In this document: positions 2,876 to 44,578 of the stretch, in pieces | How the letters are laid out: each line of letters begins with the position of its first letter | How positions within the stretch are numbered: position 1 is the stretch's first letter | Virus record (IMG/VR): IMGVR_UViG_3300037486_000387 | Location: 1 to 52,376 of that record | Origin: a virus | Taxonomy: Duplodnaviria > Caudoviricetes | Length of the DNA stretch: 52,376 nt | Reading direction: 5' to 3' (one strand) | Notes under the pieces: model-generated | Told to the model about the DNA's origin: nothing | Seen by the model: the letters and a program-made list of their open reading frames with translations, nothing else | Database searches by the model: none | Made by a program: the position numbers and the translations under genes

Positions 2876-3235
2876 ATGAACACATACAAGCTCACATTAA
2901 GCCAACTAAAAATACCAGGAGTAAAAATTCTTAAGAGCTTAGTGGCAGGACCAAAGCCATATGATTACAACAAGCTTACTTATTGCCATTTTAAAAACTC
3001 GGATGATTATTACGCATTCAAATTTAACTTAAATCTACATGACATACTTGCGGAAATTTTTGTAGGATCAGAAATTCTAGAAGATGAAGAATACACTATG
3101 GGTTGGAAAGGTTTGACAGATAAAGAAAAAATTATCTATGGCAATTTTGCAAATATTGTATTTTTGTTGAAGCAGGACATCGCAAGCTTACAAGAAGAAA
3201 TATACGCCCTCACTGAAAGACTGGACAACATTTAG
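2876..3235 (+). CDS. hypothetical AT-rich protein inserted antisense inside the RNA cluster
   Basis: 119-aa ATG ORF with C-terminal coiled-coil pattern. Confidence 0.6.
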   Translation: MNTYKLTLSQLKIPGVKILKSLVAGPKPYDYNKLTYCHFKNSDDYYAFKFNLNLHDILAEIFVGSEILEDEEYTMGWKGLTDKEKIIYGNFANIVFLLKQDIASLQEEIYALTERLDNI

Positions 3236-3310
3236 CACTTAGGAGTGATTCGAACACTCATCGTCCTGCAGCAGCAGTAACCGCCCTATCCAATTGGTTC
3301 GCACTGAGTG
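3235..3310 (-). ncRNA. tRNA-like RNA with aberrant D and anticodon arms
   Basis: Acceptor CACTCAG/CTAAGTG, perfect T arm GAGTG-TTCGAAT-CACTC, D-loop-like AATTGGATA, middle arm CTGC-TGCT-GCAG. Confidence 0.7.
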
Positions 3311-3317
3311 AATGTTT

Positions 3318-3406
3318 GGGGAGAAGGTGAACTTGAACCACCATTGCCAATGGACGGAATCGAACCGCCTCTGACGCCGACGCGCCCACCGCCAAGGTGC
3401 TCTCCC
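3318..3406 (-). ncRNA. five-arm tRNA-like RNA with two T-loop-like hairpins (copy 2)
   Basis: GGGAGAG/TTCTCCC closing stem; CACC-TTGGC-GGTG; GGCGC-GTCG-GCGTC; GGCGG-TTCGATT-CCGTC; GGTGG-TTCAAGT-TCACC. Confidence 0.8.
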
Positions 3407-3439
3407 AGTGTTGTTCCAGCTTACCAGAAGATCAATGAA

Positions 3440-3528
3440 GGGAAGGCGCAGGACTCGAACCTGCCTTGACCTTACGGAATTGAACCGTTCCCCGCCGTCG
3501 CGAGCCGCACCGTTTGCGGATACCTTCC
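3440..3528 (-). ncRNA. five-arm tRNA-like RNA with two T-loop-like hairpins (copy 1)
   Basis: GGAAGGT/GCCTTCC closing stem; CCGCA-AACGG-TGCGG; CTCGC-GACG-GCGGG; ACGG-TTCAATT-CCGT; GCAGG-TTCGAGT-CCTGC. Confidence 0.8.
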
Positions 3529-3532
3529 AGTG

Positions 3533-3681
3533 ACCCCCAGGTTTGAGCATTGTTAAGAGGCTTAGGGGGTGTTTTGGCGGTCTCTGCAGAGTAGGTCACC
3601 GACTATACGCCAGCAACCACCGCCAGGATAGAAGGAGCAAGCGTAGGCTTTGGTTAAAAGCGTAGAGGCTTGCCCTCTGTC
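3533..3681 (-). ncRNA. three small structured RNA modules at the 5' end of the RNA cluster
   Basis: ACCCCC/GGGGGT stem (3533-3570); three-way junction closed by TGGCGGT/ACCGCCA (3575-3625); hairpin AGAGG-GCAAG-CCTCT with loop complementary to a downstream CTTGC (3631-3681). Confidence 0.6.
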
Positions 3682-4330: not shown

Positions 4331-4933
4331 TTATTCTGGCACGGCTTCTTTCCAGATCCAACCTACTTGATAACCGTCAAGGTAGGGTTCGATCCCCAGG
4401 GATTCCATTAGTTCATAGATGAGACGCCCTTTACCAATACGTTTTCCAGCTGGTGTTACAAGATTGTCATCCACTACGATCAACGTGCCATCTTTGATGC
4501 AGTTCTTGGCTGCGAACAACTCCTTTAGGTGGTGTGCAGCAGGTGCCCAGTCGTTATTCCAATCGTCGATATTGTAGGAATCTAGGTAGAGCAGATCAAT
4601 TTTACCTTCGAGAGTACCAAGGAATTCAACTGAATCTGATTCAATAACCTCAGTGAACCACGTATTTTTTTCTGCGAGCTTGCAGGCGACAGGATCAATG
4701 TCAACGGAAAGAACGTCGCCGCCGTGATAATCAACAAAGCTATCAAAGAGAAGAGTAGAGCAGCCGTCACCTTCGTAATTGTTTTCTTCACGGTAAGTAC
4801 CAGTCTCGACAATGACAGGATTTTTAACGGTGGTTAGGTATTCAAATATTTTTTTGAAACCATCCCTGCGATCGTTAAGACGTGGTTGAATCTCTTGGAA
4901 GTATTCAGCCCAAGTTTCGTGATAATCTTTCAT
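4331..4933 (-). CDS. class I SAM-dependent methyltransferase (Methyltransf_24-like)
   Basis: IVETGT, SVDID, DLLYLDS and IVVDD motifs. Confidence 0.8.
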   Translation of the reverse strand: MKDYHETWAEYFQEIQPRLNDRRDGFKKIFEYLTTVKNPVIVETGTYREENNYEGDGCSTLLFDSFVDYHGGDVLSVDIDPVACKLAEKNTWFTEVIESDSVEFLGTLEGKIDLLYLDSYNIDDWNNDWAPAAHHLKELFAAKNCIKDGTLIVVDDNLVTPAGKRIGKGRLIYELMESLGIEPYLDGYQVGWIWKEAVPE

Positions 4934-43986: not shown

Positions 43987-44490
43987 TTACACCATTAACG
44001 ATTCAATAGGAGCTTGTGCAATACGACCAAACATTCCTGTTGGTTGCGCTCTTGCTGCCGCAATTGTTTCTTGTAGTCTACCAAAACGTTTTTTACGTGA
44101 TACATTTTCAAATAAAGGACTACCCTGGAAAGCTGCTTCCCATTTTGATTGATCTCGTTCTAGGCCCATTTGCTTGGGCATGAACTCACCCAGTTCCAGG
44201 CGTTTACCACGAGCTTGACGATTAAAATCAAGGTCTGCTCCAGTGGTAGAACCATAGATTTGAGGGAACATGGCCATAGCCATATTACCCTTGGCGGAAT
44301 CACGGTTAAAAAGAATGCCTTGCTTTAACGCATCAGCTTGAGCAGCATTTTGCGCATTGGCAATATCAGCTGCAGTACGTTGTTGCCCAAAGCCAGAAAT
44401 TAATCCGCCTACTGCGCCGATACCTGCTACTGCTACATCATCCCAACCAAACATGTTCCCTCCTGATTTACCTACAGATTTAGACGGCAT
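43987..44490 (-). CDS. putative DNA pilot/ejection-type protein
   Basis: AVAGIGAVGGLISGFG hydrophobic N-terminus followed by A/Q-rich helix; two alternative RBS+ATG starts (44490 and 44454). Confidence 0.65.
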   Translation of the reverse strand: MPSKSVGKSGGNMFGWDDVAVAGIGAVGGLISGFGQQRTAADIANAQNAAQADALKQGILFNRDSAKGNMAMAMFPQIYGSTTGADLDFNRQARGKRLELGEFMPKQMGLERDQSKWEAAFQGSPLFENVSRKKRFGRLQETIAAARAQPTGMFGRIAQAPIESLMV

Positions 44491-44523
44491 GTTCCCTCCT
44501 GATTTACCTACAGATTTAGACGG
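44452..44523. repeat. 2 x 36-bp perfect tandem repeat containing RBS and ATG
   Basis: Copies at 44452-44487 and 44488-44523. Confidence 0.92.
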
Positions 44524-44578
44524 GCTGCTCAAATGACCAGCAGCCGACCCAAGACTATTTGTTATTATTATAAGTCAG

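Follow-up and report, generated by a model that had tools for sequence, protein, structure and literature searches.

tRNA-Shaped Phage RNAs with a Second T Arm: Two Tandem Members of a Widespread, Apparently Undescribed Family

What kind of RNA carries the acceptor stem and T arm of a tRNA together with a second T arm, and what would a phage keep it for? The question is raised by two tandem elements of 89 nucleotides (nt) each, E1 and E2, on the minus strand of the IMG/VR virus record IMGVR_UViG_3300037486_000387 (Duplodnaviria; Caudoviricetes), the whole of which (positions 1 to 52,376; 52,376 nt, hereafter the window) was analyzed. A preliminary description, made from the letters of the window, had proposed that the two elements may be an undescribed class of processed phage RNA. 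E1 and E2 proved to be paralogs within a phage-borne family of tRNA-shaped RNAs that is present almost only in viral contigs; the family is widespread and apparently undescribed. Phage tRNA arrays are usually read as a codon supply or as spares against anticodon nucleases; many arrays, and some near-tRNA-less phages, also hold this conserved tRNA-shaped RNA, which is predicted to be unable to decode.

Layout of E1 and E2

The five-helix layout proposed earlier for both elements was borne out by direct reading of the minus strand, on which every part was present as follows.

3528-3440, minus: E1, 89 nt, member of the subgroup with UUCAAUU and a GGUCAA linker
3528-3522 (5' strand) and 3447-3441 (3' strand), minus: E1 acceptor stem, 7 base pairs (bp)
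3521-3520, minus: AU between the E1 acceptor 5' strand and hairpin A
3519-3505, minus: E1 hairpin A, 5 bp, 5-nt loop AACGG
3504-3491, minus: E1 hairpin B, 5 bp, GACG loop
3490-3489, minus: E1 spacer GA
3488-3474, minus: E1 hairpin C (T-arm copy), UUCAAUU loop
3473-3465, minus: E1 linker, 9 nt
3464-3448, minus: E1 T arm, UUCGAGU loop, stacked on the acceptor stem
3440, minus: E1 discriminator base, C
3407-3439, minus: spacer between E1 and E2, 33 nt, ending in CACU
3406-3318, minus: E2, 89 nt, member of the main, cyanomyovirus-type subgroup
3406-3400 (5' strand) and 3325-3319 (3' strand), minus: E2 acceptor stem, 7 bp
3399-3387, minus: E2 hairpin A, UUGGC loop
3386-3373, minus: E2 hairpin B, 5 bp, GUCG loop
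3372-3370, minus: E2 spacer AGA
3369-3353, minus: E2 hairpin C, UUCGAUU loop
3352-3343, minus: E2 linker, 10 nt
3342-3326, minus: E2 T arm, UUCAAGU loop, flush with the acceptor 3' strand
3318, minus: E2 discriminator base, C

CACT lies directly 5' of both elements, as had been noted. The order of the parts is the same in the two copies; the claim of one shared layout needs one correction, at hairpin A, which directly adjoins the acceptor stem in E2 and is set off by AU in E1. This 2-nt linker and the hairpin A loop AACGG, in place of UUGGN, are the departures of E1 from the family form. The window has two matches to a pattern of two T-loop-like motifs spaced 14-24 nt apart, whereas none of 100 shuffles gave one.

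E1 and E2 Are Not Ordinary tRNAs

Searches for known RNAs showed that E1 and E2 are not ordinary tRNAs. ARAGORN reported one gene in the whole window, a "tRNA-???" at 2529-2600, and called neither element; no normal tRNA was found by it in the window. The Rfam tRNA model RF00005 (gathering score 29 bits) gave no match to E1 or E2 even at E values up to 10. At gathering scores, the only match of Rfam 15 to the window was an abiF RNA at 3569-3533. Under permissive filters with E values up to 10, the best match of E1 was to tRNA-Sec (RF01852), with 18.7 bits against a cut-off of 47, and that of E2 was a partial match to mascRNA, with 16.7 bits against 42.5; relatives of the elements likewise remained below the cut-off (tRNA-Sec, 23.0 and 26.3 bits vs. 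47). Neither an Rfam model nor an ARAGORN call for transfer-messenger RNA (tmRNA), standard or permuted, matched the window, and no tag frame was found. At the position of a canonical anticodon arm, the hairpin of E1 and E2 has a 4-nt loop. The earlier proposal of an undescribed class is supported in that neither ARAGORN nor any Rfam 15 model detects the elements, and the family as a whole is absent from Rfam 15.

The Elements Belong to a Phage RNA Family

Relatives were sought with sequence-structure patterns that fixed UUCRAUU in hairpin C, the strict pattern being derived from E1, E2, and a stretch of the Synechococcus phage S-CREM1. In IMG/VR, the strict pattern matched 67 stretches representing 41 distinct sequences, from which L024, L027, and L067 (L numbers denote loci) were removed as their layout did not match; a looser pattern matched at least 120 viral stretches. 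A covariance model, R1, was built from 19 E2-type sequences with E1 excluded, and membership was set at about 35 bits or more, above the tRNA background, with a full-length match. R1 gave 103.2 bits for E2 and 45.0 bits for E1, the latter with E = 5.2e-7 in 664 kb. Both matches span model positions 1-90, and both elements carry the five ordered helices, a GG in the loop of hairpin A and another in the linker, and UUCRAUU in hairpin C. Lower matches of 19.0-33.5 bits proved on spot checks to be tRNAs or other non-members. Pattern scans and R1 hence agree with the proposal of an RNA class of phages conserved beyond the window.

Among cultured phages, BLAST with E2 found one homolog, in S-CREM1, with 84.4% identity. 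This stretch, at 44482-44571 of OP535465.1, is an exact fit to a gap of 97 nt that has no annotation and separates tRNA-Phe from tRNA-Ile within a tRNA array. S-CREM1 is the only isolate identified as carrying the family, and with its host Synechococcus CB0101 a cultured system exists. A palindromic-loop member and an E1-like member gave no BLAST match in 50,697 cultured-phage records.

The family ranges from small phages up to phages of 359 kb and falls into three subgroups. The first, which includes E2, comprises the GACG-tetraloop forms of cyanomyovirus-type arrays; the second, found in very large tRNA arrays, has a hairpin B with an 8-12-nt self-complementary loop and often a 3' end of G-CC(A); and the third, which includes E1, has UUCAAUU with a GGUCAA- or AGGCAA-type linker. 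By layout, E1 is nearest to L146, L147, and L163.

Wider scans added little. When a pattern was anchored at the 5' side and hairpin C was left free, the matches listed were mostly coding DNA of GC-rich phages, and a truncated-looking copy, L263, was the only addition among them. With a two-T-loop pattern in prokaryote genomes, the matches listed were mostly tRNAs and chance or duplicated T-arm pieces. Scoring of 80 prokaryote loci by R1 gave four at E values up to 0.001 (L296, L315, L328, and L331; 31.5-36.9 bits), among which L296 is a duplicated tRNA 3' end and L315 is a repeat of the viral locus L139.

Anatomy of the Family

Anatomical features were counted over 42 distinct full-length members. 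The order of helices is a 7-bp acceptor stem, hairpin A of 3-5 bp with a GG-containing loop that is usually UUGGN, hairpin B, a purine spacer, hairpin C, a linker, and the true T arm, which is flush with the 3' strand of the acceptor stem. Hairpin A directly adjoins the acceptor stem, with 0 nt between, in 35 of the 42. GG is present in the hairpin A loop of all 42 members and in the linker of all 42; the linker measures 9-12 nt and always has GG followed by A-rich bases. Hairpin B is variable, with either a GACG-type tetraloop or a longer self-complementary loop, and no 7-nt anticodon loop occurs. Hairpin C is a T-arm copy of 5 bp with the loop UUCRAUU (UUCGAUU in 38 members, UUCAAUU in 4). 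At the discriminator, 17 members have A, 13 have C, 7 have T, and 5 have G, and U stands at position -1 in 30 of 42.

The preliminary description had offered an alternative, an odd anticodon loop (CAA Leu; CGA Ser), which hairpin C would represent. Three scans that retained the hairpin C stem and the T arm and forced position 3, 4, or 5 of the hairpin C loop to differ gave four matches in 2.9 million viral contigs, all judged to be non-members as ARAGORN made no call and the T stem and acceptor stem were absent by inspection; no family member deviating from C-R-A at positions 3-5 was found by these scans. Since the scans showed no isoacceptor-like variation at these positions, the hairpin C loop behaves as a T-loop. 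The loop is the same as the T-loop of the same molecules, and its sixth base is U; position 37 of a tRNA is a purine. Together with the variable discriminator, these features disfavor the anticodon alternative.

In the palindromic-loop subgroup, 12 of 16 members encode CC after the discriminator, and 5 of these encode CCA. As read from the sequences, the tip of hairpin B in all 16 (L005, L008, L013, L021, L026, L028, L044-L046, L048, L050, L056, L057, L059, L062, and L066) carries a self-complementary run of 6-12 nt, the central dinucleotide of which alternates between two self-complementary options. By analogy, this self-complementarity hints at dimerization through a loop-loop (kissing) contact.

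Covariation and Folding

Covariation supports all five helices, in keeping with the covarying stems noted earlier. In a MAFFT alignment of 19 sequences, 99.8% of cells were paired and double changes occurred at 8 of 26 pairs, as compared with 0-2 in slid controls. Among 50 diverse model-aligned matches, which include one tRNA and a few doubtful rows, 97.5% of cells were paired, double changes occurred at 22 of 26 pairs (7-17 in slid controls), and the covariation score was 0.689 (0.060-0.100 when slid). When 12 diverse members were aligned by MAFFT without structural guidance, RNAalifold independently recovered four helices (acceptor, B, C, and T), in which 14 of 18 pairs were compensated, and missed hairpin A owing to misalignment. 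The 18 column pairs of highest mutual information were all pairs of the model.

The five-arm fold is the minimum-free-energy structure of E1 (-36.8 kcal/mol; 60% of the ensemble), with a z score of -2.10 and equally good folds in 7 of 200 shuffles. The plus strands of the two elements were less stable (-29.0 and -27.0 kcal/mol; z scores of -1.19 and -0.75).

Genomic Context of the Family

Family elements are placed like tRNA genes: 27 of 51 start at most 11 nt after a tRNA on the same strand, and in 50 of 51 rows every ARAGORN tRNA of the locus lies on the strand of the element, the exception being L095. Processing by tRNA enzymes is therefore a natural inference, in line with the earlier suggestion of a processed RNA. 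Scans of whole records gave a match in 46 of 49, with one family copy each; second matches in two records were a tRNA-Gln (record G002) and a match of 29 bits (record G038). The tandem of E1 and E2 is thus unusual, because the family copy is normally single per record. In one complete phage of 77 kb, an element is retained alongside a single further tRNA, which lies at a distance of 2 kb on the opposite strand.

Upstream of E1, the window contains a second small RNA, and further phage loci carry the same motif.

3533-3569, minus: abiF RNA motif (RF03085), cmscan score 55.3 bits (gathering score 37), match over model positions 1-37 of 37
L002, 3001-3047: abiF RNA
L031, 748-784: abiF RNA
L411, 26-62: abiF RNA
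L413, 204-240: abiF RNA

Only 4 nt (CACU, 3529-3532) separate this abiF RNA from E1, and no Abi_2 protein (PF07751) was found in the 52-kb record. All 8 distinct abiF motifs in the fetched loci are followed, 3-7 nt downstream, by the start of a tRNA (4 cases: Ala, Arg twice, and Thr) or of a family element (4 cases: the window, L095, L099, and L153), a 4:4 split that is biased as the loci were picked for the element. The abiF RNA is described as neutralizing the AbiF HEPN toxin (Saunier et al., 2025), and its presence in S-CREM1 has already been noted by the authors of that phage. A cut by RNase P at the downstream tRNA shape would set the 3' end of the abiF RNA; the order of abiF RNA and then tRNA suggests how phages mature an orphan antitoxin RNA, and the orphan phage abiF RNA is a candidate anti-AbiF device.

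A second association is with permuted tmRNA genes, three of which contain a complete element.

L414, 1135-1491 (the same as L136, 1149-1539): permuted tmRNA gene with a complete element
L163, 5815-6212: permuted tmRNA gene with a complete element
L147, about 4748-4832: permuted tmRNA gene, by sequence context, with a complete element

In L136/L414, the element lies in the excised segment (tmRNA_permuted, 96.6 bits vs. 47) and, in L414, in the inserted, unaligned part of the match. ARAGORN concurs on a permuted tmRNA for L136 and L163, and L147 has the same flanks by sequence context. A tRNA in the excised segment of a tmRNA has been called a unique feature, and the two-piece tmRNA transcript is described as cut by tRNA-processing enzymes (Nawrocki et al., 2025).

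Other Features of the Window and of Related Loci

Further features of the window near E1 and E2 are as follows.

3232-3312, minus: stretch T3, weakly tRNA-shaped, directly after E2, with a T arm (UUCGAAU loop) and a 6/7 acceptor stem
2529-2600, minus: stretch T4, a cloverleaf RNA, ARAGORN "tRNA-???", Rfam tRNA 33.2 bits against 29
2876-3235, plus: AT-rich open reading frame (ORF) of 119 amino acids between the tRNA-like RNAs, no Pfam match
2270-2524, minus: ORF of 84 amino acids that clusters with HNH/Endo VII homing-endonuclease genes beside the element in 7 other loci

Where stretch T3 would have its anticodon arm, it has a hairpin of 4 bp and a 4-nt loop; its minimum-free-energy structure is not a cloverleaf (z score of 0.05), and it received no ARAGORN or Rfam match and no homology support. 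The anticodon arm of stretch T4 has a 4-bp stem and a 5-nt loop. Over about 58 nt, it shares 83-90% identity with DNA that carries no annotation in the Synechococcus phages S-PM2, S-RIM8, S-SZBM1, and S-CREM1, and it belongs to a second conserved family of non-decoding tRNA-like RNAs, separate from that of E1 and E2. The 275 nt between stretch T4 and the plus-strand ORF (2601-2875), GC-rich by eye, were rejected as a structured RNA (z score of 0.03).

In 11 loci (L003, L010, L015, L016, L030, L034, L082, L095, L096, L099, and L153; for example, L015 4974-5531), a same-strand gene for a calcineurin-like metallophosphoesterase of about 180 amino acids occurs no more than about 2 kb from the element; this may be plain synteny, or the gene may encode an RNA-end-healing enzyme. 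In 8 loci, the element has HNH or Endo VII genes as neighbors. Both kinds of gene were treated as synteny and not as partners.

GOLLD RNAs were observed at L048 3393-3857 and L056 7888-8305 (213 and 201 bits) in large tRNA arrays with palindromic-loop members. Another viral tRNA-like form, located just 3' of a stop codon, was seen in L113, L121, L143, L157, and L158 (for example, L121 4011-4081); it has a 9-bp acceptor-like stem around only two T-arm-like hairpins and ends in ACC.

Proposed Function and Alternative Explanations

We tentatively read the family as a non-decoding tRNA mimic that would be matured by RNase P and CCA addition and would act in trans as a mimic or decoy, a reading slightly more apt to fail than to hold. 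The tRNA-like maturation in itself is well supported by context. The order of hairpin A, hairpin B, a spacer of 3-5 nt, and hairpin C would correspond to the D arm, anticodon arm, variable loop, and T arm of a cloverleaf, and the RNA could be regarded as a tRNA body with a capped anticodon arm and an extra module of a D-loop-like linker and a T arm. Judged by these motifs, two GG:T-loop elbows would result. The stack of acceptor stem and T arm, with U at -1, would make the RNA a substrate of RNase P, and its 3' end would be trimmed and would bear CCA, partly encoded in one subgroup. Decoding is not expected because there is no anticodon loop and the discriminator is variable. A mimic acting in trans would tie up or attract a factor for which the elbow, T arm, or acceptor end of a tRNA is the recognition site, for example, a host tRNA-targeting defense enzyme or a tRNA-processing or modifying enzyme; as a side effect, the RNase P cut would free the upstream abiF antitoxin-type RNA. 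The single copy per record and the retention of an element in the near-tRNA-less 77-kb phage support an independent function, and the orphan abiF RNA without Abi_2 was counted as a counter-defense neighborhood in favor of the mimic.

It had also been suggested, by analogy with the paired T-loops of RNase P, T-box RNAs, and the L1 stalk, that the elements may bind the elbows of tRNAs. In that form the analogy is not supported: both T-loops are carried by complete arms of 5 bp, and all 42 members keep two distinct GG segments. The simpler reading is that of two tRNA-type elbows, a mimic rather than a binder.

A bolder form of the proposal, possible but doubtful, is that the family represents the first natural tRNA with two complete elbows and no anticodon, an RNA-only tool for counter-defense or takeover in phages from cyanomyoviruses to 350-kb jumbo phages. 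Released from tRNA arrays by RNase P of the host and supplied with CCA, it would block or divert a host enzyme that recognizes the shape of tRNAs; in the window, it and the orphan abiF RNA would constitute a small "RNA anti-defense cassette." The enzyme would be, for instance, a tRNA-targeting abortive-infection nuclease or a nucleotidyltransferase.

Several points weigh against the mimic. The 50-match alignment was fitted to the model, and the search patterns themselves account in part for the invariance of the hairpin C loop. The double-elbow fold is deduced from motifs, and a mutual-information search detected no tertiary covariation beyond the helices. The family fold of E2 (-34.6 kcal/mol) lies 4.4 kcal/mol above an alternative minimum-free-energy structure (-39.0 kcal/mol); it is selected by comparative data, and thermodynamics alone does not choose it. 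In one metatranscriptome run, contigs identical at 100% to the window span 3109-3486 and 2387-2740, and coding DNA is covered as well; such cover gives neither ends nor strand nor proof of transcription, and DNA carry-over is possible. The discrete transcript, its ends, the CCA, and the partner are all predictions here. Clustering of neighbor genes brought out no conserved protein partner gene, a decoy role requires high abundance, and the family may already sit unnamed among the RNA candidates of Fremin et al. (2023).

The main rival, which we consider unlikely, takes the elements as processing punctuation, namely, cis-acting RNase P/RNase Z sites that would free abiF RNA, tmRNA pieces, and tRNAs, with the released RNA as a by-product. 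Such a site would account for the tRNA or family element 3-7 nt after abiF in 8 of 8 distinct cases, for the elements that fill the excised segment of permuted tmRNA in L136/L414, L163, and, by context, L147, and for the 27 of 51 elements adjoining a tRNA. However, ordinary tRNAs (Ala, Arg, and Thr after abiF) do the same job, and E2 follows E1 with nothing between them to release. The strict conservation of hairpins A-C, GG, and the second T-loop across very different phages, and likewise the single-copy pattern, would be left unexplained.

It is improbable that the elements are charged, non-decoding RNAs that donate an amino acid off the ribosome or, as a tmRNA domain only, disturb trans-translation. 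The intact acceptor/T-arm minihelix and the CC(A) encoded by 12 of 16 members of one subgroup would suit such a role, as would the nesting in phage tmRNA genes. A precedent for interference is a tmRNA of mycobacteriophage DS6A that lacks the coding sequence (CDS-less) and is described as inhibiting host tmRNA (Nawrocki et al., 2025). Yet the discriminator is spread over all four bases, the acceptor stems differ wholly between subgroups, and the window has no match to a tmRNA model. Charging of tmRNA with alanine needs a G-U third acceptor pair, whereas the third pair in the family is G-C, A-U, or similar.

Still less probable is an aberrant decoding tRNA with an extra arm, E2 being Ser-CGA and E1 Leu-CAA. 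The stem of hairpin C measures 5 bp, UU precedes CGA or CAA in its 7-nt loop, and Ser and Leu are the long-arm classes of about this length. Across 70 family sites, ARAGORN made 20 forced and mutually inconsistent calls (Ser-cga 12, Leu-cag 7, and Tyr 1); the 12 Ser(cga) calls would speak for a decoding tRNA, but the calls cut the molecule short or disrupt helices that covary, and they clash with the 7 Leu(cag) calls on near-identical sequences. Against this explanation stand also the Rfam results (no tRNA match; tRNA-Sec at 18.7-26.3 bits vs. 47), U at the purine-37 position of a loop identical to the T-loop, the failure to find any other "anticodon" in the family, the 0 nt between acceptor stem and hairpin A in most members, and the canonical tRNA-Ser genes already carried beside the element in its arrays. 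As gene finders miss the family or mislabel it as tRNA-Leu(CAG) or tRNA-Ser(CGA), censuses of phage tRNAs are distorted.

Decaying tRNA pseudogenes or a chance likeness, suggested by a window that lacks a normal tRNA and holds two other odd tRNA-like stretches (T3 and T4), are scarcely credible, being already contradicted by the double changes at 22 of 26 pairs in the 50 matches, the 0 of 100 shuffles giving the motif, and a family that reaches from small to 359-kb phages.

Comparison with Known Systems

The family offers a widespread and clearly defined candidate for a new phage-host interaction based on RNA. Literature searches found no description of a phage tRNA-like RNA with a second T arm, although the 8,495 unnamed IMG/VR RNA candidates of Fremin et al. 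(2023), some of which are given as tRNA-like, may include it.

The closest likeness is to tRNAs. Like class II tRNA-Ser/Leu and tRNA-Sec, the elements have a 7-bp acceptor stem flush with a 5-bp T arm, a UUCRANU loop, and a GG-containing D-like hairpin; with canonical tRNAs, they share a length of about 89 nt, as in long-arm forms, a place in tRNA arrays, and U at -1. Unlike a tRNA, the family has no 7-nt anticodon loop and usually no nucleotides 8-9, and it has a second T arm and a second GG segment. The abiF RNA (RF03085), a full-length neighbor upstream of E1, is a separate RNA.

RNAC and RNAD of phage T4 (species 1 and 2 RNAs) are similarly small stable RNAs from the tRNA cluster of a T4-type phage, and RNAC has a T-arm-like hairpin, as does the family. 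Their function is given as unknown (PMC3014915; PMC9697503). They differ from the family in their lengths of 139 and 119 nt and in having no second T arm. Homology to rnaC and rnaD was rejected, as R1 with filters off scored 12.4 bits on rnaC, below the phage T4 tRNAs, and matched merely a 17-nt fragment of rnaD with 2.6 bits. Hence, they are the nearest positional analogue and not homologous.

The tRNA-like domain of tmRNA and the CDS-less tmRNA of DS6A resemble the family in a tRNA shape without an anticodon and in maturation by tRNA enzymes, which is predicted for the family. Unlike tmRNA, the family has neither the G-U third pair nor a tag frame, and the element is the excised part.

The natural duplication of a T arm makes the family a case for asking how tRNA elbows are built and read. 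In RNase P, stem I of the T-box, and the L1 stalk, two T-loop motifs likewise occur in each RNA; these modules consist of interdigitated pentaloops on one stem, arranged head to tail, whose flat surface binds the elbow of another RNA by stacking. The family, in contrast, has two full T arms 9-12 nt apart, each with a candidate GG partner.

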